In this document: positions 20,728 through 61,869 of the stretch, in pieces
Numbering within the stretch: position 1 is the first letter of the stretch
Layout: the number at the start of each line of letters is the position of its first letter
Source: an uncultured Azospirillaceae bacterium
GTDB lineage: Bacteria > Pseudomonadota > Alphaproteobacteria > RF32 > CAG-239
DNA: 64,000 nt
Assembly (NCBI GenBank): GCA_964410325.1
Contig: CAYPFN010000008.1
Span: forward strand, 6,570 to 70,569
Direction of reading: 5' to 3'
The notes under the pieces: generated by a model
The model's database searches: none
Seen by the model: the letters and a program-made list of their open reading frames with translations, nothing else
What the model was told of the DNA's origin: nothing
Made by a program: the position numbers and the translations under genes

Positions 20728-22545
20728 ATGGCTAAAAAAACCGCACAAACAAAAAAACGTACAAAAAAAATACGGCGCTCTTCCCGCAAAAGGAACCCAA
20801 ACCGCCGTTTTCCGTTAAAATTTTTATTTATCTGCGCTGTTGGCGTTATCACTGTCGTGGCCATCTATGTCGGCTACTGCTATGCAACGCTTCCGGATGT
20901 TGAAACTGCCGTATCCCATACCCGCCGGCCATCTACGACTATCATTGCCGAAAACGGCAATGAAATTACCACTTATGGTAATAGCTTCGCCGAAGTCATT
21001 TATTTGGAAGATTTGCCTTATTATGTTCCGGCTGCTGTTGTCGATGTCGAAGACCGGCGTTTTTATTCTCATTTTGGTTTTGATGTTATCGGTTTTTCCC
21101 GAGCCATGCTTGTTAACTTAATCAAACAGCGCTATGCCCAAGGCGCCAGCACCATAACCCAGCAAGTAGCCAAAAACCTCTTTTTAACCTCGGAAAAGAA
21201 TATCAAACGCAAAATTCAGGAACTGCTTTTGGCTTTTTGGCTTGAGCATAAATTCAGCAAAGAACAGATTTTAACGCTGTATCTGAATCGCGTTTATTTA
21301 GGTGCTGGCACTTACGGCATAGAAGCTGCCGCCAACAAATATTTCGGCAAAAGCTCACGTGATTTAACCCTAAAAGAAGCCGCCGTCATTGCCGGTATGC
21401 TCAAGGCTCCCTCTCGTTATAATCCGGCAACCAGTCCAGATAAAGCGCAAACACGTTCTGAAGTTGTTTTGAGCCTGATGTTTGAACACGGTACAATTAC
21501 CAAAACAGAAATGGAAAAAGCCGTTGCCGAACCGTTGGCAAATGCCACAAAATATAAGGTAGAGGGCGCACGCCATTTTGCCGATATGGTTTATAATGAA
21601 GTCAACGCTTATATCGGCGAACGTAATCATGACATATATGTCAGCACCACCCTTGATCAGGATCTGCAACAAAAAACCGAACAAATCCTGCAAAAAATGC
21701 TTTCCCAATATCAAGACCGCCATGTAACCGAAGGCGCTGTCGTTGTTTTGGATCGCCACGGCGCTATCAGAGCCCTGGTTGGCGGAAAAAATTATGAAGA
21801 AAGCCAGTTTAACCGCGCCACTCAGGCTTTGCGCCAACCAGGTTCGGCATTCAAACCTTTTGTGTATATCACTGCGCTTCAACAAGGTTGGAGACCGGAT
21901 GATCTGATTGATGACATTCCGGTTAAAATCGGCAAATGGCAACCGGAAAATGCTGACAAACAAACTCATGGACGGGTTACCTTGAGTGAAGCATTGGCGC
22001 ATTCATATAATTTGGCAACCATTAATTTAGCGGAACACTTAAATCGGCTGGATATTATCCGCAATGCCTATAAAATGGGCATTACGACCAATATTCCCGA
22101 CACACCATCTTTAACGTTGGGTACGGCGGCTGTTAAAGTTTTAGATATCGCAGCTGCTTATTCAACCATAGCCAACGGCGGTTATGCTATCTGGCCGTAC
22201 TCTATTTCCGAAATTTATTCTAAAGATGGATTTCAGTTGTATCAACGGGATATGAGTGAACCGACACGAATTTTAGATAAAGATGTTGTTCGTCAAATAA
22301 CCTCAATGTTAGAAGAAGTTATCGCTAACGGTACTGGCCGACGGGCGGCGCTGCCATTTTTTACCGCCGGAAAAACCGGCACTTCGCAAAATTTTCGTGA
22401 CGCCTGGTTTGTCGGTTGGACCGATCAATATGTTGCGGCAGTTTGGGTCGGCAATGACGATAATTCACCAATGGAAAAAATCGGCGGCGGTACACTTCCG
22501 GCATTAATCTGGAAAGAAATCATGCTCGCTGCCCATGAGCTTTAA
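20728..22545 (+). CDS. Class A penicillin-binding protein (PBP1A family)
   Basis: EDRRFYSHFG, GASTITQQVAKNL, RKIQE; RQPGSAFKPF, SYN, GKTGT. Confidence 0.93.
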   Translation: MAKKTAQTKKRTKKIRRSSRKRNPNRRFPLKFLFICAVGVITVVAIYVGYCYATLPDVETAVSHTRRPSTTIIAENGNEITTYGNSFAEVIYLEDLPYYVPAAVVDVEDRRFYSHFGFDVIGFSRAMLVNLIKQRYAQGASTITQQVAKNLFLTSEKNIKRKIQELLLAFWLEHKFSKEQILTLYLNRVYLGAGTYGIEAAANKYFGKSSRDLTLKEAAVIAGMLKAPSRYNPATSPDKAQTRSEVVLSLMFEHGTITKTEMEKAVAEPLANATKYKVEGARHFADMVYNEVNAYIGERNHDIYVSTTLDQDLQQKTEQILQKMLSQYQDRHVTEGAVVVLDRHGAIRALVGGKNYEESQFNRATQALRQPGSAFKPFVYITALQQGWRPDDLIDDIPVKIGKWQPENADKQTHGRVTLSEALAHSYNLATINLAEHLNRLDIIRNAYKMGITTNIPDTPSLTLGTAAVKVLDIAAAYSTIANGGYAIWPYSISEIYSKDGFQLYQRDMSEPTRILDKDVVRQITSMLEEVIANGTGRRAALPFFTAGKTGTSQNFRDAWFVGWTDQYVAAVWVGNDDNSPMEKIGGGTLPALIWKEIMLAAHEL

Positions 22546-22679
22546 TAAAGGATTATCGCTCAGGCTTATTTACATAAGAAATTTTTGCGATAATTTCTGA
22601 CATTGAAAAAGAGTTTATCAATTGCTTAAACTGTATTTCATGAGGCATGATTTTGCTCTGATTTAATCTATCTTTTAAT

Positions 22680-23516
22680 TTATTTTGCACAAATTTTTCT
22701 CTTTAATTTATTAAATAGCAATCTTATTAAATTTTTAACTATAAAATTTTTGTGGTCTTTTTTCCAATTTTTTTCATTGCCAACTACTGAAACTTGAGCT
22801 TTTGCGCCACCTATCCACCAAGCAACTTCAGCAAATGTACTACCATAAGAATAAATTCCATTTTGACAGCGAGATAACAAAAAGATATCAGCTACAGCAT
22901 CTATCATCAACGAATAATTTTTATTTGGGAGTTCAATGATTCTATCGGGAAATTGTGATTTAAAATAATCACTTACCTTAGAAGACATTGCACTCAGAAA
23001 GAACATTGTATTTTGAGGAAATTTTTGCATTTGTTTTACAAAATCTTCTAAATTTTCATTTCTTCCAGCTTTTTCCCAATCAAGATTATTTCTAACCTGA
23101 AGAGCAACCGTTCCTCGAGGAAGATCAATATCCTTTATTCTTTTTTTGACTTGTGCAGATGGTTTTAACTTATTAAAAAAATCCAGATATAATTTGCGAT
23201 TTTCTTCCGAAATATCATTGTATTTCAAATCAATATCTTCTTTAGCATACAATTTCCAATGATATCCTTGTTTGTACAAACATTCCGATTTGAAAAGTTT
23301 TTTATATTTTTTTACATCTTTCTCAGAGCAAAGCTCAATCATTTCTGCTTTGCTTTCAAATTGAAAGAGTTCAGAAAATGATGCTGTAACCCACCCTTTC
23401 TTTTTCCAAACAAGAGTAAATTTTTGCGGTTTATAATACTCATACAAAGACGCAAAATATTTAAGTCGGTTACCAATTCCTCCTTGGCATAGATAAAAGA
23501 TATTATTTTTGTACAT
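22680..23516 (-). CDS. Fucosyltransferase-like GT-B glycosyltransferase
   Basis: GGIGNRL, ALQVR..D, DIFLLSRCQ..I.SYGSTFAEVAWW resemble fucosyltransferase motifs I-III. Confidence 0.6.
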   Translation of the reverse strand: MYKNNIFYLCQGGIGNRLKYFASLYEYYKPQKFTLVWKKKGWVTASFSELFQFESKAEMIELCSEKDVKKYKKLFKSECLYKQGYHWKLYAKEDIDLKYNDISEENRKLYLDFFNKLKPSAQVKKRIKDIDLPRGTVALQVRNNLDWEKAGRNENLEDFVKQMQKFPQNTMFFLSAMSSKVSDYFKSQFPDRIIELPNKNYSLMIDAVADIFLLSRCQNGIYSYGSTFAEVAWWIGGAKAQVSVVGNEKNWKKDHKNFIVKNLIRLLFNKLKRKICAK

Positions 23517-24552
23517 TTTTATTTAACCTATTGATTTTATTGTTATATTGATATGCATAAAAAATAAATGATGCACATAATTGAATAAAATAGCCTATAG
23601 AAGAGATACACTCTCTCATTGTAAACTTCGTAAAGAACTTTGATAGATGTTTTTTAAATCGTCTATATTTAGGATTGAATAATTGCAAATCGGACCATGT
23701 TTTGGGAATAACAAAGCTTTTGTCACAATATTTTTGATAATTGATATGCCAGTTAAGAGGATGCGCTGTTTCGCTATTACCAAATTGTTTATTATATTTT
23801 TGACAAACGATATCAAATTGTTTTTTATATTCTAAAAGCCATGTATTATTAACCAAAGATAACTCTGATAATTCAGCCAATTCGGATGAATATGACATAT
23901 AATTCTCAAATTGAAAATTAATGCCGTTTTTTTTCAAAAAAGACATCCAAATGTATTGCTCGGTATGCCATCTAGTATAACAACCTTCAATATGAGGCAA
24001 ATCAGGATTATTTTTAAAATATTCGCTGGTTTGCGGTTCCGGAGCCAAAGGGATATCCCAAATATTAAGCAAATCTTCTTTCAAGCCAAACATCATCCAA
24101 TCACCAGGATGAAACAAATGAGGTTTGTTTTTTAACAGTGGTTCTCGAGTATACAAACTATTAATCAACACCCGTTCTTGCAAAATTTTGCATTGACTGT
24201 TTCTTTTTTGATATTTTGCAAAATAAGATAAAAATTTTGTTCCCTTAATCAACATATCTGAACGCAATTTCAATACATATTTTTTTGATGCTTTTTTTAT
24301 TCCATTCTGCGTTGAAACAATTTGACGATTTTGATTTTGAAATTTTCCATCAAAAGTAAAAATAAAAGCTCCAGGATCTTTATTTAAGATCAGTACATCA
24401 TAATCCAAATTTAGGATAGATTTATTTTTCCATGTAGAAAGGATGATTTCCGCCTCCGGCAAATGCTTTCGGATACTTTTAAGGCATTTGCTGGTATATT
24501 TAGGCTCTATTTTTCCTTGCACAATAACAGATATGTCTTTTGCTGAGATCAT
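23503..24552 (-). CDS. WavE lipopolysaccharide synthesis family protein
   Basis: ISVIVQG, EIILSTW, DPG, NRQIVST.NG, KLRSD, FHPGDW..FG. Confidence 0.85.
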   Translation of the reverse strand: MISAKDISVIVQGKIEPKYTSKCLKSIRKHLPEAEIILSTWKNKSILNLDYDVLILNKDPGAFIFTFDGKFQNQNRQIVSTQNGIKKASKKYVLKLRSDMLIKGTKFLSYFAKYQKRNSQCKILQERVLINSLYTREPLLKNKPHLFHPGDWMMFGLKEDLLNIWDIPLAPEPQTSEYFKNNPDLPHIEGCYTRWHTEQYIWMSFLKKNGINFQFENYMSYSSELAELSELSLVNNTWLLEYKKQFDIVCQKYNKQFGNSETAHPLNWHINYQKYCDKSFVIPKTWSDLQLFNPKYRRFKKHLSKFFTKFTMRECISSIGYFIQLCASFIFYAYQYNNKINRLNKNVQK

Positions 24553-24553
24553 G

Positions 24554-27500
24554 TTATCCTAATATGATAATTTTAATAGATCTTAACACATGGACAAGCA
24601 ATTTTACTAAATAGAAAAGTATTGAAAATGGTTCTAAAAGCCAATTTACAAATTTTTTGACAGGTGTCCAAAAACGTTGGGCATGTTTTTCCAATTTTTG
24701 TACTGCTTTTGAAGAAAACACCATAATTTTCAATCTGTTTTTTAATGTATTATTAATGCCAAAACAATGGTTTTGAGAGGCTGCTAAAATACAAGGTTGA
24801 ACAATATTTAAAAACTTTTTTTGAAATTTATAGTTTTTTATATCTGTTTTATCACACCTTATTATGTTAATTTCTTCTTCCTTAAATAAACGAGCAAAAT
24901 TTTTCCATCTTTTTTTATTTAATAATAACATGGCATGTTCTAACATGCCACTCTTTCCTTTAAAATTATCATAAAAATCTTGTATGTATACATCTTTTTC
25001 TTGTTTTGACAAATATTTTGACAATAAATCTTCCAGTGATTTAATTTGATATTTATACTTATCATTATTTTTAAAAATATAACTTAGATATAGGACAATT
25101 TCAAAAATTCCATATCTGATATCTTTGGGAAGAGTAATGCTTTTTGATGTTTTTTGAGAATTTAGATTCCATATTTTTTTAGCCATCTCTATAAAACTTC
25201 CATGCTTTTTCACCATATCTTTAAGTATTGCTGTTTTATAAAACCAAACAAAATGCTCTAGAGGCCATTTATCTACATGGGAGTCAATTAAGTTATCAAT
25301 ATTTTCACAAAAGGTCATAAAATCCTTAGATCTTTTAGTATTATCAATTGAAGATACAATTAAATATGGTTTTTTGAAAAAACTTTGTTTTAATTGTTCC
25401 ATATTTGTCTTTTTAACAAATAAACTTTCGCTGTCTAAAACAAGGTAATCTTCTCTATCAAGAAACAACATGGCATACATTTTCTTCAATGTTTGAAAAG
25501 TAAAACGACCATATCGTTCTAACAATTGCTCCGGAGTTTCTAGTATTTTATTGCTTTTTAATATATCGTCAAAAAATATAGTTTTTATCCGTAATTTTGT
25601 TTTATATTTTTTTGTAATTTTGGAAAAATATTTATCTTCATCTTTATTAATAACAAAAACTATTTCTGTTGAATCTTTATCCAATAAAAATTTATCTGTA
25701 CTTTGTAAAAATTTTTTTACAAACTTAAAATGATTTTTATAAGTAGGCATTATGATTGTATTTTTTATAATATTTGGTTTTGCTTGTCTTTTATTCTTTG
25801 CTAATAAAGACCTAATTTTCTTAATTTCTAAGCATAATTTTATATACAAAATATCTTTATCAAAAAAACTGTTAAAAGTATTTGTAGCACAATATTTATT
25901 GTATAGTGCTTTCCATTTATATGGAGTATAACAAGACAAAAATCTTTTAGGATTTTGATAGATTGAAAATTTATCTGTTTGAAAATCAACACCAAATGTT
26001 CGGTAATTAACCAAAATAAAGTTAGATGCAAACAAATGCTCTGTAAGTGAAATATTTTCTTGAGAATTATCATCATAGGTAGACAAATTAATTTTTATGC
26101 CTTTTTTTTCTAAAAATTTTATAAAAATATACTGTTCTGGAATGTATTTTCCATATATACCTTTAAAACTCACCTTTACATCTTGCTCTTTCAACAGAGG
26201 AATATCCCAATAATCCATCATATCTGAGGTCAAGCCAAACAAAACCATATCGGAAGGATGAAAAGGATAATTTATTTTCATATATTTATTAGCATATATT
26301 CCCTTTTTATAAACATTTGGATCTCTGGTAAAGTATGATGGAATAAGCAATCTATGCTGAAGCAAATGATATCCTTCTTCATATTTTGTACATTGATTCA
26401 AAAGATTTAAAAAGCTATTATCTTTAAGAACAGCATTACTTCTTATTTTCAAGCAATATTTTCTGGTAGCTTGTTTTATTCCATTTAGTGTAGATACAAT
26501 TTGGCGATTTACATTATTATTTATACCATCGAGTGTCAGAGGAAAATTTCCTGGATCTTTATTTAAAACCAATTTATCATAATTTAAATTTTTTACATCA
26601 CTTCCTTCCCATGTAGAAAGTATAATCTCCGAAAATGGAAGTTGTTTCCGTATACTTTTGATGCATTTATCAATAATCCCCTTTTCTGCCAACCCTTGAA
26701 CCACAACAGATACATCTCTACTTTTAATTTTTGTTTTTGATTCTTTAATTTTATACTTTTTCTCTATATCTTTCTGATATTTTTTTAGGTAATTTTCTAA
26801 ATTTTCTGAATAACCAATATATTGGGTGTACCAATTATAATAATCCTCAAAAGTATATGCCCAGCGTTGGTAAAATCCTTTTAACCAATCAAAGGGAGAA
26901 GTTATATCGGCAACTCTATAATCTATGCAATATAGATTATTTATAAAAATTTTATGACTATCTTCAATAATTTCCTCGTCTATATCATTATATAAACTGT
27001 TTTTTTTGTATTTAATTTTACTTTTTTCTATATTTCTAAGCCAGATTTGTTGCTCACACGCATATTTATAAGCTCTTGGATATTCCGTTTGTTTTATTCC
27101 ATGAATTACACAATACTGACTATCTTCTTTAGTTATCAAGGGAATTTTCCACAACTCTACTAAATCTTCCGTATATCCTATTTGCACATAGTCAACGATA
27201 TGATATGCTAAATTTGTTTTTTGGGCAGACGCAGGACAAAACATAAAAATTCTGTGATTAAACATCTTATAGTTTAAATCGACATCTAAATTAAGATCTT
27301 CAAATTCACAATAAATCTTCCAAATTTTATCTGATTTCAATATAAAATCTGGTCTAAATTTTACGGCATACTTTGTTCTGACATGAAGCAATCCATTGTA
27401 TGAAGATACTATTTGACGATTTAGGTTGTTTTTGTGCGATAAACCTTTCGTATTTGGATAGAATACATCCCCTAAATCTCCTGGATCAATATTGAATACA

Positions 27501-27658
27501 ACCTCATCGCAATCTATATCTGAAACATCTGTACCAGCCCAAGTCGAAAAAATTATATGAGAACCAGAAAAATATTTTCGTATACTGGAGATACATTCAT
27601 GTATTTCTGGTTTTTTATTTCCTTGAATTACAAAAGTTAAGTCTTTATTATCTATCAT
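24554..27658 (-). CDS. Tridomain protein: WavE + WavE + GT-A-like domain
   Basis: Two copies of VQG..STW..DPG..NRQIVS; C-terminal domain IIMPTY...QTLKK...YLVLDSES. Confidence 0.75.
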   Translation of the reverse strand: MIDNKDLTFVIQGNKKPEIHECISSIRKYFSGSHIIFSTWAGTDVSDIDCDEVVFNIDPGDLGDVFYPNTKGLSHKNNLNRQIVSSYNGLLHVRTKYAVKFRPDFILKSDKIWKIYCEFEDLNLDVDLNYKMFNHRIFMFCPASAQKTNLAYHIVDYVQIGYTEDLVELWKIPLITKEDSQYCVIHGIKQTEYPRAYKYACEQQIWLRNIEKSKIKYKKNSLYNDIDEEIIEDSHKIFINNLYCIDYRVADITSPFDWLKGFYQRWAYTFEDYYNWYTQYIGYSENLENYLKKYQKDIEKKYKIKESKTKIKSRDVSVVVQGLAEKGIIDKCIKSIRKQLPFSEIILSTWEGSDVKNLNYDKLVLNKDPGNFPLTLDGINNNVNRQIVSTLNGIKQATRKYCLKIRSNAVLKDNSFLNLLNQCTKYEEGYHLLQHRLLIPSYFTRDPNVYKKGIYANKYMKINYPFHPSDMVLFGLTSDMMDYWDIPLLKEQDVKVSFKGIYGKYIPEQYIFIKFLEKKGIKINLSTYDDNSQENISLTEHLFASNFILVNYRTFGVDFQTDKFSIYQNPKRFLSCYTPYKWKALYNKYCATNTFNSFFDKDILYIKLCLEIKKIRSLLAKNKRQAKPNIIKNTIIMPTYKNHFKFVKKFLQSTDKFLLDKDSTEIVFVINKDEDKYFSKITKKYKTKLRIKTIFFDDILKSNKILETPEQLLERYGRFTFQTLKKMYAMLFLDREDYLVLDSESLFVKKTNMEQLKQSFFKKPYLIVSSIDNTKRSKDFMTFCENIDNLIDSHVDKWPLEHFVWFYKTAILKDMVKKHGSFIEMAKKIWNLNSQKTSKSITLPKDIRYGIFEIVLYLSYIFKNNDKYKYQIKSLEDLLSKYLSKQEKDVYIQDFYDNFKGKSGMLEHAMLLLNKKRWKNFARLFKEEEINIIRCDKTDIKNYKFQKKFLNIVQPCILAASQNHCFGINNTLKNRLKIMVFSSKAVQKLEKHAQRFWTPVKKFVNWLLEPFSILFYLVKLLVHVLRSIKIIILG

Positions 27659-30039
27659 AATTTAACTCCTTTTATATAAGACTTAATTTGTTTTCTATAT
27701 TCTTTATATTTTTTATATTTTTCTTTATAATGTTTGCGCATTTTTCCAAAATAAATTTTTCTCAATATTTTATAACGAAAATATTTTCTGTTTATCTCAT
27801 CTTTGCACAAAAGAAGCCTCAGAACTTGGTTATTAGTTTCTGTATTTGTTGGTAAAATATTTTGCACTTCTCTATTTGCTAGCAAATCATATGTTGAAAC
27901 AGAAGTATTTTTTGGAAAAGTCAAAGCTTCTTTAATCCATCTTAGAGCTTTCTCTTTCTGCTTTGATAAAATGGAAGAAAACTTATTTTTATCAAATTTT
28001 TCTAACAAATCCATATGTGATAAAATTCCTGTTACATCAAAAAACATACGTTTTTCTTCTTTGAATATTGATAAAAGAGATGTAAACCGAGACGTACCTC
28101 TTACCTGATTTACAATAGAAACAAATGGTTTGTTGAAAATCATGGCAAAACATGTCCCATGGAAGGAATCAGTTATAACGGCTTCGGCATTTTTAAAATA
28201 ATAAAGCCAATCTTCAACCTCCACACCCTTCTGAGCCTTTTCTTTTTTCATTAAAACATTTCCGTCGCAAATATTAACCAATTTAAGTCCTAATTCTTCA
28301 GCAGTTGATTTTATTATATTTTCTTTTTCTTCCGTTGTATCCAAAATATAGCTCAAAAGATATGGCTCATCTGATTTCACTTTTGCTTTTTCAATTACTT
28401 TCTCATATTCAGCAAAATCACATAAAAAAACAGGATCCAAAATATGCTCAGCTTTTACACCAAATATATTTTTACAAATATCCACACCATCAGCCTCTCT
28501 AACAGAAACACGATCCAACCTATGCATATGAAATTTTGCTTCACCCCACTCAGACTTAGGATCAACATATCCATCACCAAAAGACGTTGCGATAGATATT
28601 TTTCTTTTATCGTCATGAGCAAAATCCAAGAAGAAGGTTTTTCCAAATGGTTTAGGATAATGCCATAACTGATCAGATGCCAAGACAAAATTATCAATCA
28701 AACTATTTAAAACGGAAAGTTCTTTTTTACTTCTTTTGATAGAGGTAATCGGAGCTTTGAATCTACGCATAAATCGACGAGAAAGAATATGCGGATCATT
28801 CAAATGTTCCTCATTAACTAGACCAGAGGAATCAACTAAAATAGATGTATACCCCATTGATTCCAGGAGCTTGTATAAAGCATAAGCCGTCAAAATAGCC
28901 CCATAATTTTCAAAAAACCAAATACCAACAATACCAACATCATATTTATCATTTAAGGCGAAATCGACAGATTTTGAAAAATTTTGTGTTTTTCTTAAAT
29001 CAAAAAATCTTTTTCTTTTGGCTTCATTTATCTGTGTCGGAGCATAAAAACATCTATTATACTTTGTACTTTCTTCAATATTTTTTTTCTTAACCAATTG
29101 TGCATTTCGGCTAATTTCCTTAAATATTATTTCTCCTTTCTTGGAATTAATCATGACACAAGAAGTTCCCTTAGGATGTCTTAATGGCTTGTCATAAAAC
29201 TCTATACCCCAAAAATCGGCAAGCGTTATATCTCCTTGTCTGGGCATGTGATTAAATGGGCAAGTGCCACAACTTTTTCTATAAAAAAGCGCTCTTTCAA
29301 AGCCTGCAAAATATGCATTATTTCTTTCTAATTTTACCTCTGATCCATCATTTAGATAAAAAGTTAATTTAAATACACCCCAACCATCTTTTTTAGGCCT
29401 AAAATTAACGGATTTTATCTTATTTTTATAAGGTAACTCCTTTAAAAAATCTTGCCAAATTTTTTGGGAAGGAACACCATGACAGACGATATCTGCCGTC
29501 AACAAATTCTCATATTTTTTACCTAAATATTTATTAAAACCGGCAACCTGACATGGTGTTCCAGTGAACAATACATATTTTCCCGAATCCAAATATTTTT
29601 TTAATTCTGTAAATGTTTTTTTAGTGTTACTTTGAACATATTTTGAATAGCGAAGTTTATCTAAATCCTCTTTATTATGAACAATGACATGTTCAACATT
29701 AAAATTTTTATCCCAAGCGGCACCACAAACATAGCCTCCTTTATCCAAAACATAATTGGCCAGAAGCGTGAAAGCACCACCTGAGGAACTTTTCATTCTG
29801 ATTTCGTCATTGGCCCAAACAGCATAACATTCCGGTTCTTTGCTATTTTTGTATTGAGGATTATAAGCGGCACAGCTTTTAAGACACAGACCACAATCGA
29901 CACATTCGTCATTATTAATAACTGGATACAAAAAGCCCTCATCATTGGGTTGCATACTAATTGCTTTTTTAGGACAAATATTATAACAAGCACCACAACC
30001 TGTACAAATTTTTTCATCAACTAATTTAATATTGTTCAT
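27655..30039 (-). CDS. Ferredoxin/FrhB-like Fe-S domain fused to polysaccharide pyruvyl transferase family domain
   Basis: CTGCGACYNICP, CVDCGLCLKSC, SSSGGAF, GTPCQV, CHGVPS; then NYGAIL, SDQLW, DPVFL, TDSFHG. Confidence 0.88.
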   Translation of the reverse strand: MNNIKLVDEKICTGCGACYNICPKKAISMQPNDEGFLYPVINNDECVDCGLCLKSCAAYNPQYKNSKEPECYAVWANDEIRMKSSSGGAFTLLANYVLDKGGYVCGAAWDKNFNVEHVIVHNKEDLDKLRYSKYVQSNTKKTFTELKKYLDSGKYVLFTGTPCQVAGFNKYLGKKYENLLTADIVCHGVPSQKIWQDFLKELPYKNKIKSVNFRPKKDGWGVFKLTFYLNDGSEVKLERNNAYFAGFERALFYRKSCGTCPFNHMPRQGDITLADFWGIEFYDKPLRHPKGTSCVMINSKKGEIIFKEISRNAQLVKKKNIEESTKYNRCFYAPTQINEAKRKRFFDLRKTQNFSKSVDFALNDKYDVGIVGIWFFENYGAILTAYALYKLLESMGYTSILVDSSGLVNEEHLNDPHILSRRFMRRFKAPITSIKRSKKELSVLNSLIDNFVLASDQLWHYPKPFGKTFFLDFAHDDKRKISIATSFGDGYVDPKSEWGEAKFHMHRLDRVSVREADGVDICKNIFGVKAEHILDPVFLCDFAEYEKVIEKAKVKSDEPYLLSYILDTTEEKENIIKSTAEELGLKLVNICDGNVLMKKEKAQKGVEVEDWLYYFKNAEAVITDSFHGTCFAMIFNKPFVSIVNQVRGTSRFTSLLSIFKEEKRMFFDVTGILSHMDLLEKFDKNKFSSILSKQKEKALRWIKEALTFPKNTSVSTYDLLANREVQNILPTNTETNNQVLRLLLCKDEINRKYFRYKILRKIYFGKMRKHYKEKYKKYKEYRKQIKSYIKGVKL

Positions 30040-31111
30040 ATTTACTCCTTATCTTGTTATAAAGTGATGACAATTTTTCATATGATTTTTTTTCACACAT
30101 ATAATATAATATAATACCGAAAGCACACGGAAATAAAATAGATATAATCAAACAAGTGGAAATAGGATATTCCGTTTTCAAATGAAGATAAAGCTTTGAA
30201 TTTGATAAAAGATTTCCTTTTGCAAACAAAATCTGCGGAATATATTGCAGAATATAAATAGAATATGAATATATTCCCAATTTTCCTAAAAATGGTTGAT
30301 TTAATAATCTCGAAAAAGCACCTTTTTGAATAAAGAATAAAATTACTAAAATTGAAAAAACGACTATTCCGTATGCATATTCTGATAATTTTAGCGTATT
30401 GAAGAAAAGCAAATCTATAAAAATACCAAAAAAAAGAAGCTCTAATATTGTAAAAAATATTATTGTACCTTTTTTGATTAATCGTGTTTCCTGAAAATAA
30501 TTTATGTAACTTATAAAAATTCGGATTAAAATTCCCAAACCTATTCCAAACAGCCCTCGCCAAACCCCAAGCAATCCCGGTAGCACTCTTACCTTATGTA
30601 TGTAAATCATCACGCCTATATAGGACATTATTGCAACGATAAAAGTAGATATTTTATGAGGGAATATTTTAAATAAAGATAAATAAAATAAAGACACCCA
30701 AAACAATGGCCCTAAGTACCACAAATGAGAATTATTATATATAAATCTAATCTGTGTTGCGTCATTAAAAAGCGCAATATTTCTTATAAAAAAGAAAGTC
30801 ATAAAATTGTCTTTAAAATGCGTTTCTTGTGTAATTAATCCGACATAATTCAAGCAAAAAACAAATAAAAAAGATAATATGACTATAGGCATTAGTCTGA
30901 TATATCTTTTCACAACAAAATCTTGATAAGAAATATCTTTTTTTATTTGAGTAAACAAAAAAAATCCCGATAAAATAAAGAAAAAACTCACCCCAATATC
31001 CGTTCTTTCTTTTATTAAGTCAAACCCAATCAAAGGAGCGTGAACTATCAATATCGACAGACAGGATAAAAATTTTACAAAATCTAAATTGTAATATCTA
31101 GTATTGTTCAT
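30026..31111 (-). CDS. Acyltransferase-3 family membrane O-acyltransferase
   Basis: LDFVK, VSFFFILSGF, RYIRL, HLWYL, LGIYSYSIYILQ; many TM helices. Confidence 0.88.
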   Translation of the reverse strand: MNNTRYYNLDFVKFLSCLSILIVHAPLIGFDLIKERTDIGVSFFFILSGFFLFTQIKKDISYQDFVVKRYIRLMPIVILSFLFVFCLNYVGLITQETHFKDNFMTFFFIRNIALFNDATQIRFIYNNSHLWYLGPLFWVSLFYLSLFKIFPHKISTFIVAIMSYIGVMIYIHKVRVLPGLLGVWRGLFGIGLGILIRIFISYINYFQETRLIKKGTIIFFTILELLFFGIFIDLLFFNTLKLSEYAYGIVVFSILVILFFIQKGAFSRLLNQPFLGKLGIYSYSIYILQYIPQILFAKGNLLSNSKLYLHLKTEYPISTCLIISILFPCAFGIILYYMCEKKSYEKLSSLYNKIRSKYEQY

Positions 31112-31826
31112 CTTTCAAATATTCCTTTAACTGTTCTGGTGTTCCTACGCACTTCCAATCTTGTTTTTGAATATCAAAGACACCAATTTGGGCGCCATTT
31201 TTCACGGCATAGTTATAAACATTGCTCATGTAATATTCATTTTTGGCTCTATCACCATAAATCATCATTTCTATGGTGTTTTTTACAAAGTCTGCGCCTC
31301 TTGCAAACATATACACACCACAAATAGCGTGGTTGGATATGACTTCTTTTTCTCTTGTTTTGGTGACAAAACCTTTGTTATCAGTAGCAGCAAAGGAAAA
31401 ACATTCCTTATCCGTATTAAACGTGAGTAAGCTGCCGTCTAATTTTCTGGTCAGACAATCGTTCACAAAGTTTTGAAAAACCCAATTATCAAAAATGTTA
31501 TCGGAATCGGCAAAAATAACCGGCAAATTATTATTAATTATCTCATGAGAGGCCAAGGCCGTGCAACTTGCGCCTTGGGTCAATTTTTCTACACTGATAA
31601 ACGCCACATGATATTTTGAAGACAGTTTTTCCAACTGTTCTTTGTTTTCTTCTTCAAACTGTTTTTGAATTATCAGCGTATAATGGGCGTTGGGATAGTA
31701 AACACCATCTAAAACCCGCTCTATCATCATTTTTCCGTTCACATCAATAAACGGTTTGGGTAAGGTATAGCCTTGAGCTTTGAAACGACTTCCCGCTCCG
31801 GCCATGGGAATAACAATATTTAACAT
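31098..31826 (-). CDS. Nucleotidyltransferase-fold (GT-A) glycan protein, KfoE/BcbG-like
   Basis: NIVIPMAGAGSRF...PKPFIDV, TQGASCT, ISNHAICGVY, EYYMSNVYN, VGTPE. Confidence 0.75.
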   Translation of the reverse strand: MLNIVIPMAGAGSRFKAQGYTLPKPFIDVNGKMMIERVLDGVYYPNAHYTLIIQKQFEEENKEQLEKLSSKYHVAFISVEKLTQGASCTALASHEIINNNLPVIFADSDNIFDNWVFQNFVNDCLTRKLDGSLLTFNTDKECFSFAATDNKGFVTKTREKEVISNHAICGVYMFARGADFVKNTIEMMIYGDRAKNEYYMSNVYNYAVKNGAQIGVFDIQKQDWKCVGTPEQLKEYLKDEQY

Positions 31827-31834
31827 GCTCGCTC

Positions 31835-32221
31835 TCACTTTGCTTTGGCTGCTTTACTTAAGTTTTCTTCAGTCATATCTTGCCAATTATCATTAAAACG
31901 AACAACACGATCATCTATTGTGATATCTGCATTAGGTTTGCCAAAGAAAATTTCATCATATTCAATGCCGTTTTTTGCCAACCATTCAAATGTCATTTGC
32001 CCAACATTTTTTAATACTTTGCCTACATTATGACCTGTAGAGCCCATGTTACGAGCCGTGTTGATGATGATTGTATGACCAGCGGCACGCAAAGCGTGTA
32101 TCATCTCTTTTGCGCCATCTTTAACTTTAACATCAGCGTAAGTTTGCGGATCTTTTCTTATCTCACAAATAGTTCCGTCTAAATCTATGCAAATACGCAT
32201 TTTTTTATCACTAGTCATCAT
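31835..32221 (-). CDS. Small HAD-family capsule biosynthesis phosphatase (EcbF/BcbF-like)
   Basis: ICIDLDGTIC, IINTARNM, FGKP, IDDR. Confidence 0.8.
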   Translation of the reverse strand: MMTSDKKMRICIDLDGTICEIRKDPQTYADVKVKDGAKEMIHALRAAGHTIIINTARNMGSTGHNVGKVLKNVGQMTFEWLAKNGIEYDEIFFGKPNADITIDDRVVRFNDNWQDMTEENLSKAAKAK

Positions 32222-33848
32222 ATAATACCTCGTTAAATTTCTTTATTGATGTTAGGTAAAATGCTTTTTGACGCTGAATATCATCACTATGTAATGGGAT
32301 CATAGTTAAGAACAACAAAGCCTCAATAAGCTTGATTTCTTTTCTGTCATAACCATAATTTACAACCAATTCATCGAAGAACGGCTCTAATTTTTCAGTT
32401 AAAACAGGAGTTGAAATTTGAAAATCGTAAAAATCTTTGCCGGATGCCTTAAGCTTATATAGTCCGGCAACGATAAAGTCATATAACCCTACAATGCTAT
32501 GGCGCAATTTGGCAATATCATAACGCGGATCTCCATATATACTTTGGGTTTTGAAACGGCCACGCGGATCAATCAGCTTGAAAATATAGTGCATTGAGTC
32601 AAATAAAATATTGGAAAAACAATAATCTCCATGTACGATTGTCCTCTTGTCATAATTGACCAATTTGGCGACTTCTGTATTCAAAGCTGATTTTAATAAA
32701 GGATAATTTTTATAATGAACATTATTGATTGAAATATAATCACTCTGCATCATTTTAAAAATTTCAGGATTTTTAGTGGCAATCTCGTCTATACGTCGCT
32801 GTGTTTTGTTTTGATATATTTCAACTAATTCTTCTTTGTCTTGTGGTTCTGTATAATTTTCAAAGACCTTATGAACCTTAAGTAATGCTTCTATAATATT
32901 ATACCAATCTTCCAAATTATTAGAGCCATAAATAAATGTTTCTGCCAAATTTGCATATCCATATAGCTCCATTTCAACCGATGTAGTTTCCGCATTTTCA
33001 CTCACGTTAAAAACTCTAGGTGCATAACAAGCAACATCGGTAGGAAGTTCTTTATACCAATTGGCTTCATCAAGCAGTTTTTGTTTATTCCTAGATATTT
33101 TAGTTATTGTGCCTCTAACAGCATCTACTTTTAAAGAATTAAACTCTCTTGCACTGAATAATTCCAAGCGAGCTTGAACTGCACCACTGACATGCCCAAA
33201 ATCAAACCAACGTTGTGTTGTTTTTATTAAAATTGGGTGAATGTTATGATACTTTTGCAATACATTTATAAAACTTGCTTCATAATTTAAAAATTCTGTA
33301 GCTAAAAGTTGCTTTAACAACTTTGTATCTGAAAATTTATAATATCCTACCAAAGCTTCTTTATCGGCTATTGAGATGTCTCTTTCTTTATTGTAAATTC
33401 TTGCCAAATAACCTTTTTTATCTTTAGAAACTAAACACCATTGTTTTGATGCTTTTATATTTGGAGAAGACAGAAAAACATCATCTTCTTCGGGGAAAGT
33501 TTCGTCTATTAAGGTATCGCCAAAAATAATTTGCGTGGAAAAGTTTTCATCACAACTGTCTAAAAGATTTATGACTGAGGAAGATATGTCTGAATCTGAT
33601 TCAATAAAATATTGTTGAACGTTGGGATAACTATAACCAAGAAAACGACTCAATCTTGTATTGTTTTCTCGCAATACAATTTTGATTTTATCGGCACCAT
33701 TTTTTATGGCAGAATCGATACACCAGTTAATGGCTGGTTTTGAACGTATCGGCAAAAGTCCGGGATCTGTAATCATACCTACGGATATGTTTTTGGGATT
33801 AAACTTTCCGGCCGATAAAATGATGGTGTTGACTTTTTGCTTTTCCAT
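32211..33848 (-). CDS. NTP-transferase-like domain fused to APH/choline-kinase-like phosphotransferase (KfoD/BcbE-like)
   Basis: IILSAG..LLPI, FGDTL, WFDFGH; kinase-type HGDYCFSNIL and IDPRG...GDPRYDIAKL. Confidence 0.75.
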   Translation of the reverse strand: MEKQKVNTIILSAGKFNPKNISVGMITDPGLLPIRSKPAINWCIDSAIKNGADKIKIVLRENNTRLSRFLGYSYPNVQQYFIESDSDISSSVINLLDSCDENFSTQIIFGDTLIDETFPEEDDVFLSSPNIKASKQWCLVSKDKKGYLARIYNKERDISIADKEALVGYYKFSDTKLLKQLLATEFLNYEASFINVLQKYHNIHPILIKTTQRWFDFGHVSGAVQARLELFSAREFNSLKVDAVRGTITKISRNKQKLLDEANWYKELPTDVACYAPRVFNVSENAETTSVEMELYGYANLAETFIYGSNNLEDWYNIIEALLKVHKVFENYTEPQDKEELVEIYQNKTQRRIDEIATKNPEIFKMMQSDYISINNVHYKNYPLLKSALNTEVAKLVNYDKRTIVHGDYCFSNILFDSMHYIFKLIDPRGRFKTQSIYGDPRYDIAKLRHSIVGLYDFIVAGLYKLKASGKDFYDFQISTPVLTEKLEPFFDELVVNYGYDRKEIKLIEALLFLTMIPLHSDDIQRQKAFYLTSIKKFNEVLYDD

Positions 33849-33857
33849 TTTCTTCTC

Positions 33858-35696
33858 CTAATTATTTAAATATCCTACCGAAATGCACAGATTGAATTGC
33901 AAAATTTGAATTTTGATGTGAAAAATACTGGGCAAAAATGTCAAAAAACGAATGTAAGAATCCTTGCCTAATTTTATCTTGAATAAATTTTTTAAAATTT
34001 TCTTTTCACGTAAAATGCACCAATCCGCATTTCCTTGATACATAAGTGGATATGTCTGAATATGATTCTTGGTCAACTCTTGCATTGCCATATTCTCAGG
34101 ATTCCACAAATAATCTTTGTATTTGGAAAAATCTATGCTATGCAAAACCTTGCAAATTTCATCTGCCGTATTTGGAGATGAAACAAACAAAATATCCGTT
34201 GCGGCATCAGCTGTCAGAGCAAAATCATTTATATAACGGCCATGAGCGACAAATTTTATTTTTTCTTTATTTTGTTTTGTAAGAACAAGCTCTTTATTGA
34301 GAATATCTAATATAAACGGACGGTTTAGATAAATATCCGGCCGGATAAAAACGATATAATCATATTGAATGCCCTGCTCTTTTTGATATTGCTTGCGAAG
34401 TTTGTTGACTTCATTTTGGGAGTGATACATACAAGATAACCCCCAAACAGAAATTTTTGACTTTGGATTACATAAACACTGTATATTTCCCCAATCTTGC
34501 ACATTTTGATGTTCTACTTTTATAGATTTGAGAGAATAAAGCTTCTTAAGCTTTTCTACAACTTGAGTATCAACCTTTTTGACTTTACATTTATTTTTGT
34601 GGTGACTTAGCGTAGAATGGTTGGTTTCATCCCATGTATGCATAAAAACATCACAATCATATAAGTCTATTAAGTTCTTTTTTATTGATGAGGCGCATTT
34701 TTCAAAAGTACGCAAATGGCCAAACATCTGAACTGCAACTTTTACATTGCTTTTTGGCTTGTTTTTAAGAAGCCTTTTATATTGACAATATCTCCATAAA
34801 CCATGCCATTTAAACGCAAGCATCCCTTTTTGTTGCAAGTCTGCAAGTTCATCACTAAAAACTTTCCACATTTCAGCAGAAACCTCTGCAGAAGCATGAC
34901 TACATTTATTATATTGATGTTTTAATAAACGAGGCAAAGCGTCTTTTTTAAAAAAATCTAATTCCTTTTTTAATCCTTTTTGACTATACAAAGATACAAC
35001 TGAAAGTATTCCCGTCCAATAACCTGATATTTGTTTGGGGGATGACTTTTGATTAGAAATTGAATTTATGTTTTTAGTATAAAGATGTAATTTCAACGGA
35101 AGTAATGCTGTTTTGGGATGATTACTTAGTACTGCATATGTAAAAGGATAATCTTCAAATTGAATTCCTTTAATAAAATTCATATCGTCAATTAAGCTCT
35201 TTTTATAAAATTTAGTCCAAACATTAAATGATATTCTGTTTTTTCCGGAACAACCTTTATACAAAGGCTTGTCATATATTTTAGCTTGAATTTTGCTTAT
35301 ATCAAAAATCTCTTCAGGAAGCTCTTTTCCATCTGATTTTTTATAACCAAAGCATACTAAATCGGTATTATATTTGGCTGATATTTGATAACAAATCTCT
35401 ATTGTCTGAGGCTCTATAGCGTCATCAGAATCAAGAAAATAAATATATTCACCTGTTGCTTGCTTTAAACCATTATTTCGAGCCTCGGAAAGGCCTTGAT
35501 TTTTTTGTGTTATTAATTTTATTCGATTATCTTTTTTTGAATAATCATCTAAAATTTGCGCACTATTATCCGTACTTCCATCATTAACACAAATAACTTC
35601 AATATCTTTAAATGTTTGCGTTAAGACACTATCAAGACAACGAGCCAAAAACTGTTCGACATTGTATACAGGAATAATTACAGAAACTTTGGACAT
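33858..35696 (-). CDS. GT2 glycosyltransferase fused to a second GT-like domain
   Basis: VSVIIPVYN, VNDGSTD, ARNNG, FLDSDD, FED; second domain KVAVQMFGHLRTF...RPD. Confidence 0.85.
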   Translation of the reverse strand: MSKVSVIIPVYNVEQFLARCLDSVLTQTFKDIEVICVNDGSTDNSAQILDDYSKKDNRIKLITQKNQGLSEARNNGLKQATGEYIYFLDSDDAIEPQTIEICYQISAKYNTDLVCFGYKKSDGKELPEEIFDISKIQAKIYDKPLYKGCSGKNRISFNVWTKFYKKSLIDDMNFIKGIQFEDYPFTYAVLSNHPKTALLPLKLHLYTKNINSISNQKSSPKQISGYWTGILSVVSLYSQKGLKKELDFFKKDALPRLLKHQYNKCSHASAEVSAEMWKVFSDELADLQQKGMLAFKWHGLWRYCQYKRLLKNKPKSNVKVAVQMFGHLRTFEKCASSIKKNLIDLYDCDVFMHTWDETNHSTLSHHKNKCKVKKVDTQVVEKLKKLYSLKSIKVEHQNVQDWGNIQCLCNPKSKISVWGLSCMYHSQNEVNKLRKQYQKEQGIQYDYIVFIRPDIYLNRPFILDILNKELVLTKQNKEKIKFVAHGRYINDFALTADAATDILFVSSPNTADEICKVLHSIDFSKYKDYLWNPENMAMQELTKNHIQTYPLMYQGNADWCILREKKILKNLFKIKLGKDSYIRFLTFLPSIFHIKIQILQFNLCISVGYLNN

Positions 35697-36284
35697 CTAT
35701 TTATTTCCTCCACTAAAGGAAATTCCGCGTCTTCTAGCAAAGGTATAGATTGATACTCGATTGATACCTAATTGTCTGGCAATTTCTGATTTTGAAATAC
35801 CAGCATCAAGCATTCGTAAAATTTCTGCCGAATTGTTTTCTAATTTGGATTTTACTTTTGCCCCAAATGGACGACCAAGTTTTTTGCCTTCTTTTTTACG
35901 TTGATTTAAAACTTTTCTGGTTGATTGTGAAATTAAATGACTGCGAATATCAATAGCAGCATCCATTCCTTTGAAAAAATCATCAGTTAAGCCAGAATTA
36001 TCAAAGCTATAACCCTCATCTATAGAAAATAGTTTCAGATTCCTTTCCTGACAAAACTGAAGATTATCTTTGATATTTTGTAGATAAGAACCGATATGGC
36101 TTATTTTGTTAATAAGAATACCTTCACAATCTGCTTGAATAATACTTTTTACATTTTCAAAATTCTCACCAGAGTGAACACACCCCATTACTAAGCCTTT
36201 CTCTTTTGCAAAAGAGACAAGACTTTGATATTGATCAGCATAGTCTGCCTGATCTTGATTATTTGGTATGTATCCAACAAACAT
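35697..36284 (-). CDS. Serine resolvase/invertase-family protein (Mpi-like) lacking catalytic residues, with C-terminal HTH
   Basis: GYIPNNQDQ in place of GYxRVSTxxQ; SHIGS in place of SRLGR; helix E LISQSTRKVL, GKKLGRP and HTH SKSEIARQLGINRVSIY retained. Confidence 0.8.
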   Translation of the reverse strand: MFVGYIPNNQDQADYADQYQSLVSFAKEKGLVMGCVHSGENFENVKSIIQADCEGILINKISHIGSYLQNIKDNLQFCQERNLKLFSIDEGYSFDNSGLTDDFFKGMDAAIDIRSHLISQSTRKVLNQRKKEGKKLGRPFGAKVKSKLENNSAEILRMLDAGISKSEIARQLGINRVSIYTFARRRGISFSGGNK

Positions 36285-36296
36285 TCAGCACATTCT

Positions 36297-36448
36297 TCAA
36301 AAATCAGCGTTTGTGCATAAATTTATTAAGATATAACTACTTATATCAAGGAGAGCCTTTATTTTCTTGGTGTTGATAAAAAAAACATCTTGCAATTTAA
36401 AATAATTTGTGTAGGTATAAGATATATAAAATAAACGCTGATTTTTGA
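36297..36448. repeat. Perfect 16-bp inverted repeats flanking a 120-bp promoter-like segment (candidate invertible promoter)
   Basis: tcaaaaatcagcgttt (36297-36312) and aaacgctgatttttga (36433-36448). Confidence 0.85.
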
Positions 36449-36646
36449 TGACTGCAGCAAAGTGTTTCATCGCCTTTGGTAGGTAGTTAAATCATATCTG
36501 CGAGATGCTAAAATATCTCAAGAATATCAAAATGTTATATGTAGCTGGACATCTAATGACATTAGCGAAAAAATATATGGTCTTTTAAACGCACATAATT
36601 TTTCTTGCATTGTATAAAAATAGATAATATTATCAGCTTAGTTGTT

Positions 36647-36723
36647 GGGGGTGTAGTTCAGTTGGTTAGAACGCTGCCCTGTCACGGCAGAGGTCGCGAG
36701 TTCGAGCCTCGTCGCTCCCGCCA
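36647..36723 (+). tRNA. tRNA-Asp (GTC)
   Basis: 77-nt cloverleaf; anticodon arm ctgcc-ctGTCac-ggcag; T arm gcgag-ttcgagc-ctcgt; encoded CCA; upstream TTGCAT-N17-TATTAT. Confidence 0.97.
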
Positions 36724-61628: not shown

Positions 61629-61806
61629 TAACATTGAAAACAAAGGGACGCCAGATTTCAATATACCTACAGCTGTTAAAAGTTAACTAAATTTATTCTT
61701 TATCAACCTTTTCTCTTGAAAACCTTGGATTGCAACAGATTAAACCAATAAAGCAATATAAATAATAAAAATATTGGATTCTGGCGTCCCTTTATTTTCA
61801 ATGTTA
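61629..61806. repeat. 36-bp inverted repeat pair (33/36 match) enclosing 106 bp upstream of the adhesin-like gene
   Basis: taacattgaaaacaaagggacgccagatttcaatat (61629-61664) vs atattggattctggcgtccctttattttcaatgtta (61771-61806). Confidence 0.85.
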
Positions 61807-61869
61807 TTTTGCAAGTTTTTTTATGGTGGCTTGGCAAAAATATGAGTGGTTTATAAGGAGTTGTTATTG

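Follow-up and report, generated by a model that had tools for sequence, protein, structure and literature searches.

A glycan operon in the 64-kb stretch of DNA analysed here (the window) is preceded by a pair of long inverted repeats, and the question raised by this locus is whether they bound a promoter that is switched on and off by inversion. The left arm, TCAAAAATCAGCGTTT (36297–36312), is perfectly complementary over 16 bp to the right arm, AAACGCTGATTTTTGA (36433–36448), its exact reverse complement. The arms are separated by 120 bp, and the left arm begins 12 nt upstream of the ATG of a recombinase-like ORF. The original prediction of an invertible promoter had described this arrangement, and every coordinate was verified. 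The pairing of the arms extends further, to 22 bp at 91% identity (36291–36312 with 36433–36454).

Behind the repeats, the recombinase-like gene and nine tightly packed glycan genes (22680–35696, minus strand) form a ten-gene run in which the ends abut or overlap. The glycan genes represent GT2, kinase/NTP-transferase, HAD, NTP-transferase, acyltransferase-3 and FrhB-pyruvyl transferase families, with three WavE domains and one unknown. The GC content of the glycan block, from 22.7 to 36.4 kb, is 26–33% compared with ~42% in the flanks. This low-GC block (22000–36450) is bounded on one side by a PBP gene and on the other by tRNA-Asp(GTC) (36647–36723, plus strand), which lies 198 bp beyond the distal recombination site described below. 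The block looks like an acquired island with this site as its right end.

The intergenic DNA is AT-rich and abounds in short repeats, with 34 inverted pairs of at least 10 nt in 1.2 kb, which lends some colour to the view that the arms are a chance inverted repeat, a MITE, an RNA hairpin or a terminator with no switching role. The 16-bp pair is nevertheless the single case in the 64-kb window of a perfect inverted repeat of at least 16 bp with 50–300 bp spacing, and when the window was simulated 100 times with a first-order Markov model, one run produced such a repeat. The window holds no further exact copy of the 16-mer; four other matches have three mismatches each, which is the chance level. 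Moreover, loci whose proteins are only 46% identical keep the same position, spacing and outer motif, and inversion is seen in homologues, as set out below. We regard a chance origin as effectively refuted.

The repeats had been put forward as 16-bp arms. These do lie within the recombination sites, but what functions is a longer, 22-bp hix-like site reaching past the 16-bp identity on both sides. The gene-proximal site, TTCAAAAA-TCAGCG-TTTGTGCA (36296–36317, plus strand), contains the left arm and has its central AG at 36306–36307. The distal site (36428–36449), which reads ATCAAAAA-TCAGCG-TTTATTTT on the minus strand, contains the right arm and has its central AG at 36438–36439 (CT on the plus strand). 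A site model built from 24 homologous loci, aligned from outer to inner end, gave the consensus TTCAAAAA-N6-TTTnTnnn, and all sites conform to TTCAAAAA-N6-TTT(A/T/G)T.... Both window sites fit this consensus and share an identical central hexamer, TCAGCG. The window thus presents two inverted sites around a short segment. A second long inverted repeat in the window (61629–61807; ~36 bp overall, with a perfect 14-mer at 61642/61780) precedes the gene for a large surface protein; the core of this repeat, GGGACGCCAGA, is unlike the TTCAAAAA sites.

At the level of sequence, the sites have the form of hix-like crossover sites, with an imperfect dyad and a non-palindromic centre at the exchange point. 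The dyad is almost perfect, in an 8-6-8 arrangement, in the site of locus L032. Sites of directional serine invertases require a non-palindromic central dinucleotide, and the central dinucleotides found in the different clades, AG, AC, TT and TC, are all non-palindromic. The exchange point can be located by comparing L013 (OFF) with L016 (ON), whose arms differ at positions 2 and 6 of the hexamer. The base at position 2 stays with the flank and that at position 6 travels with the segment, which places the exchange within the central AGC. From this, we infer the cut position to within 3 bp, and a 2-bp stagger at AG would be consistent with it. Given the site centres at 36306–36307 and 36438–36439, the segment that would flip is ~132 bp centre to centre, with 36308–36437 lying between the crossover points.

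The argument that such segments invert rests on relatives, of which more than 40 loci were gathered for comparison. What is conserved among them, in uncultured gut Alphaproteobacteria, is a cassette of ~770 bp (35680–36448 in the window, compared with L001–L103) consisting of site, promoter, site and dead-recombinase gene; the downstream glycan genes vary by locus. The architecture is constant, with a site carrying the outer motif TTCAAAAA at about –180, 110–141 bp of intervening DNA, then, at about –12 to –15, a second site that ends in TTTTTGAA, and finally the ATG. Homology to all relatives ends at 36448–36452, at the outer edge of the distal site, which is therefore the outer end of the conserved cassette as well as of the low-GC island. 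The modules have been reshuffled, since the trees of the recombinase-like paralogue and of the invertases discussed below disagree.

Across three sub-lineages, the DNA between the sites is found both ways round while the flanks stay unchanged. The clearest comparison involves ten contigs encoding an identical protein, P0008: with identical flanks, the 126-bp segment lies one way in eight (L001 and seven others) and the other way in two (L002 and L003). L013 and L016 also have opposite orientations, and between L033 and L036, the segment aligns in reverse with 95% identity over 165 bp while the flanks are collinear. As for the window, its sequence runs collinear with five OFF loci (L013, L024, L026, L102 and L103) through to 36448. 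Against the ON locus L016, it is collinear to 36312, after which 36296–36467 aligns in reverse, at 73.5% over 185 bp. In addition, five contigs from different samples (L014, L017, L018, L021 and L104) start exactly at (C)GCTGATTTTTGAAG, where the ON path separates from the OFF path; such breaks would result if the two orientations coexisted within those samples. We conclude that the window element very probably belongs to a genuinely invertible family.

One further contig departs at the same place. In L015 (positions 1–376; ENA ERZ28613696), the gene matches P0006 of L013 exactly, but the upstream DNA is different and GC-rich. This DNA ends ...ACTCACAAAT|AAACGCTGATTTTTGAAG and leaves the L013 sequence exactly at the crossover site. 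Either a third site has taken part in recombination or the contig is chimeric.

If the segment inverts, it should carry a promoter that faces the operon in one orientation only, and this is what the motifs show. In each ON/OFF pair, one orientation brings a good σ70-type promoter up against the inner side of the proximal site and directs it at the operon. Its operon-facing form is TTGCAA-N16-TATGAT in L016, TTGAAA-N16-TATGAT in L036 and TTGACT-N19-TATAAT in L002, L003 and L019, all of them ON. The window homologue is TTGCAA-N16-TAGGTA (36390–36417, plus strand; TTGCAA at 36390–36395, a 16-nt spacer and TAGGTA at 36412–36417), with TATAAG/TAAGAT directly downstream. It adjoins the distal site and points towards tRNA-Asp, away from the operon. 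Because this family-conserved promoter points away, we take the window to be OFF, as are most assemblies; the ON and OFF states are throughout inferred from promoter motifs. After inversion, the proximal junction of the window copy is predicted to read ...TATATAAAATAAACG|CTGATTTTTGAAGAATGTGCTGAATG, also written ...TATATAAAATAAACG|CTGATTTTTGAAGAATGTGC.

The original prediction had named two pairs of boxes, both of which are present at the positions given, and had assigned the operon to the other pair, TTGATA-N18-TAAATT (36320–36349, minus strand). This operon-facing pair is a weak match (9/12) and is not conserved in the family, L013 having TCGATA at the position equivalent to TTGATA and other clades nothing comparable. 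We reject it as the switch promoter; the conserved promoter is the one that had been described as facing away. Promoter-like boxes alone are not above chance in this DNA, with 10 sites in 1.6 kb compared with 7.0 ± 2.4 in shuffled sequences.

The internal palindrome gatataa-ctac-ttatatc was likewise found where it had been reported (36330–36347). In the sub-clade of the window, it takes the form GATATAA-N4-TTATRTC with a variable centre, and it is kept in L013, L022, L024, L026, L102 and L103. G-U pairing would accommodate the T/C difference on the gene-sense strand of the OFF orientation and in no other case. The palindrome may be a site for a protein or form a hairpin in RNA. As an intrinsic terminator, the palindrome was rejected, the stem being weak and AU-only with no U-tract after it.

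Which enzyme might invert the segment is suggested by the neighbourhood of the cassette in relatives. An intact divergent invertase (MIYGYIRVSTDHQ) lies ~230–265 bp upstream at 10 of 22 alphaproteobacterial loci in species-representative genomes. These neighbouring invertases score 266–296 bits on the NCBIfam model NF009949, 'master DNA invertase Mpi family', for which the curated cutoff is 272 bits; the L001 enzyme scores 296 bits, and those of L013 (269.6) and L103 (265.7) fall slightly below the cutoff. All three carry the R-V/C-S-T motif, and we assign the neighbouring invertases to the Mpi family on full length, score against the curated cutoff and the catalytic serine. A tree groups them with Mpi-like invertases of Bacteroidota, Treponema and Fusobacterium, within a family that has more than 7000 protein-database matches at E < 1e-40. 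At linked loci in the OFF state, the promoter points into the invertase gene, as in L032 (TTGACG-N16-TATAGT, reverse strand). The invertase of a P0009-type switch in L019 is immediately preceded by a phage tail gene (GpJ FNIII / Phage-tail_3) and four small ORFs (positions 1–1099), and in some genomes the switch cassette may lie at the edge of a prophage.

No invertase gene was found within the 64-kb window, where tRNA-Asp(GTC) occupies the place of the relatives' invertase gene; the switch is therefore an orphan that would need a trans-acting enzyme. Orphan loci are common in the family, and in L024, the invertase gene has been deleted, leaving an 82-bp 3' remnant. Two MAGs carry one linked and one orphan locus each (L027 with L022 and L031 with L038). 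The orientation of orphans also varies between species, L033 and L034 being OFF and L036 ON. Taken together, these three observations make flipping in trans plausible.

We consider it probable, then, that 36296–36449 is an invertible promoter of the Mpi (serine invertase) type, an orphan flipped in trans that heads the glycan operon. Judged from the anatomy of the family, the mechanism would run as follows. A dimer of an Mpi-family invertase would bind each 22-bp hix-like site (TTCAAAAA-N6-TTTnTnnn) and the two sites would synapse; all four strands would be cleaved at the central AG, 2 bp apart, and rotation of the ~132-bp segment would follow. In the OFF state, as assembled, TTGCAA-N16-TAGGTA would fire towards tRNA-Asp; in the ON state, after inversion, it would transcribe the dead recombinase paralogue and the nine glycan genes. 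The invertase, encoded elsewhere in the genome, would flip the window copy in trans in the manner of Bacteroides fragilis Mpi.

Whether this particular copy still switches is a separate matter. All three assemblies of the exact copy, the window and the Logan contigs L011 and L012, are OFF, and both contigs read through the switch uninterrupted. The exact locus is present as Logan contigs in SRR7039257 and SRR7039263; of the sequencing runs examined, X1 contained the tRNA only and X2 an 88–90% relative of the locus. Pattern scans of JGI metagenome contigs and IMG/VR with the window-specific and clade-level proximal junctions gave no matches. The proposal of an invertible promoter for the operon is thus well founded for the family, given flipped homologous cassettes between identical flanks and an Mpi-family invertase that is often adjacent in relatives, and less so for this copy, with three of three assemblies OFF and the invertase missing from the window. 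On the sequence evidence, we lean towards the view that the window copy continues to flip.

The same observations would suit a fossil switch, a genuine inverton descendant that is now locked OFF or flips rarely if ever. The linked invertase would have been lost as the cassette landed beside tRNA-Asp, and a compatible invertase would be gone or the promoter decayed. Apart from the uniform orientation and the missing invertase, this account draws on the –10 box TAGGTA, which is weaker than those of relatives, on a segment 11–13 bp shorter than in the closest relatives, and on sites that are decaying elsewhere: the distal outer half-site of L022 is non-homologous, and the proximal site of L029 is degenerate. 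Yet both 22-bp sites of the window are intact and include the perfect 16-mer, which would not be expected had AT-rich intergenic DNA of this kind been decaying neutrally for long, and the dead paralogue and the operon ORFs are intact as well. The differing orientations of orphan switches between species elsewhere in the family also argue against it. A fossil is in our judgement unlikely, though the likeliest of the rivals to a live, trans-flipped switch.

The first gene behind the switch (35697–36284, minus strand) encodes a 195-residue protein that was identified by profile, alignment and structural model as a catalytically dead, Mpi-like serine recombinase paralogue. It gives weak matches to the Pfam families Resolvase and HTH_7, and scores 78 bits on the NCBIfam Mpi model (cutoff 272), over residues 55–187 only. 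The original prediction had called the recombinase dead, and alignment with active invertases confirms that the catalytic residues are lost: GYIRVSTDHQ becomes GYIPNNQDQ, ELSRLGRN becomes KISHIGSY, and EIERQLISERT becomes IDIRSHLISQST, with a 10-residue deletion. The protein has no equivalents of R8, S10, D67, R68 and R71, and so lacks the catalytic Ser and the active-site Arg and Asp residues of an Mpi invertase. On sequence, we conclude that it is an Mpi homologue and not a recombinase.

These losses are not peculiar to the window, being common to 27 of 27 database homologues of the paralogue. The dead paralogues group as a single long-branched clade (100/100) that takes in no active Mpi-like invertase, not even those of Alphaproteobacteria, and are confined to MAGs of uncultured gut Alphaproteobacteria. 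They are under purifying selection, with pairwise dN/dS of 0.07–0.21. The long E-helix, the KLGRP arm (GRP) and the HTH are still present. The AlphaFold model (pLDDT 85) has the full small-serine-recombinase fold, and in a fold search, its best PDB matches were the Sin, Tn3 and γδ resolvases; a sequence search against the PDB gave no matches. Two copies at orphan loci, in L038 (151 residues) and L042 (an internal gap), are truncated or interrupted, and the paralogue is therefore not maintained in every copy.

A protein that keeps its DNA-binding parts and has shed its active site invites the reading, also raised in the original prediction, that the repeats are a pair of operators. They would mainly bind the dead paralogue for autoregulation or DNA looping, and no inversion would take place here. 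The E-helix dimer interface, minor-groove arm and HTH would suit such a role, as would the selection on the protein and the start of its gene 12 nt from a site. There is precedent too, Tn3/γδ resolvase doubling as a repressor at res. As the primary explanation, we nonetheless set it aside, because the same sites demonstrably recombine in relatives. Site sequence, moreover, tracks the type of invertase and not the paralogue, psi_L001 lying behind L001-type invertase sites. The operator pair is accordingly improbable as an alternative to switching, and an operator role for the paralogue would more naturally accompany inversion than replace it.

The paralogue psi_L001 is 84% identical to the window protein, whereas inv_L001 and its sites are the most divergent; since the paralogue and invertase trees disagree, the paralogue appears to be tuned to no single invertase or central sequence. 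In Hin and the resolvases, the E-helix, GRP arm and HTH contact the A-tract half-site and form dimers. The most economical hypothesis is that the paralogue binds the shared TTCAAAAA half-sites or forms mixed oligomers with the invertase.

A two-state circuit of enzyme and dead twin, in which the paralogue alters flipping rates and orphans are slave switches, can be sketched tentatively on this basis. In the ancestral linked form, one orientation would drive the active invertase and the other the dead paralogue with the glycan operon. The paralogue would be produced in the ON state only and, by binding TTCAAAAA half-sites or joining the invertase in mixed oligomers, would alter how fast its own switch and others flip, so that ON would be locked or one glycan made at a time. 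Orphan copies such as that of the window would be slave switches, read and written wholly in trans.

Mpi-type promoter inversion is the textbook route of capsule variation in gut Bacteroides, and the system of B. fragilis is among the closest known to the present one. The relatives' invertases are, like B. fragilis Mpi, small serine invertases of NF009949; promoter segments of ~110–200 bp between short inverted repeats lie directly upstream of polysaccharide operons, regulatory genes head the switched operon, and the host is gut-dwelling. The inverted-repeat consensus in B. fragilis is ARACGTWCGT, compared with a site core of TTCAAAAA-N6-TTTnT here. Unlike B. fragilis, a member of the Bacteroidales, the present host is an uncultured alphaproteobacterium, and the family invertase is usually linked and divergent, with the OFF-state promoter pointing into its gene. 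In place of UpxY/UpxZ, the operon opens with a catalytically dead paralogue of the invertase; Bacteroides UpxZ does the same job as that proposed for the paralogue by a different route. For B. fragilis, Mpi (finA) and the invertible promoters of the capsular polysaccharide loci are attributed to Coyne et al. 2003, as cited in PMC11602134, and flipping of unlinked polysaccharide promoters in trans by Mpi/FinA to Patrick et al. 2003/2010 (PMC3090145). The B. fragilis sites were likened to hix by Patrick et al. 2003, as cited in PMC3090145.

The window locus shares with Hin/hix (Salmonella fljBA) and with Gin, Cin and Pin sites of 22–26 bp with an imperfect dyad, A-tract half-sites, a non-palindromic central dinucleotide and a protein with a GRP minor-groove arm and a C-terminal HTH, and with Hin in particular a probable invertible promoter. 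The hix half-site is TTATCAAAAACC, compared with TTCAAAAA here. The hin gene, with a Fis-bound enhancer, lies inside its invertible segment. The present segment measures only ~130 bp and has its invertase gene outside it or none at all; no enhancer was identified, and family membership, by NF009949 score, is Mpi and not Hin. The structures most similar to the model of the dead paralogue are the regulatory-site complexes of Sin and Tn3 resolvase (PDB 2r0q and 5cy1). Tn3/γδ and Sin provide precedent for a serine-recombinase fold that binds DNA in a non-catalytic, regulatory mode; these resolvases are catalytically competent, whereas the paralogue is without catalytic residues.

Overall, the switch itself is already known in kind; what is new is the built-in dead paralogue and the linked and orphan organisation in Alphaproteobacteria. 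Full-text literature searches found no paper describing a dead-invertase-paralogue component, and two features are absent from the described paradigm in the literature searched, a conserved and selected dead invertase copy as the first switched gene, and orphan switches that have lost their linked enzyme. The 22-bp site model and the ON and OFF junction sequences enable orientation-specific counting in metagenomes. For these organisms, the finding places a Bacteroides-style strategy in poorly known, uncultured gut Alphaproteobacteria, carried by a portable ~770-bp cassette that heads different glycan operons. If it is true that the dead paralogue modulates inversion, it would be a new feedback element of a DNA switch, a natural dominant-negative or decoy recombinase.
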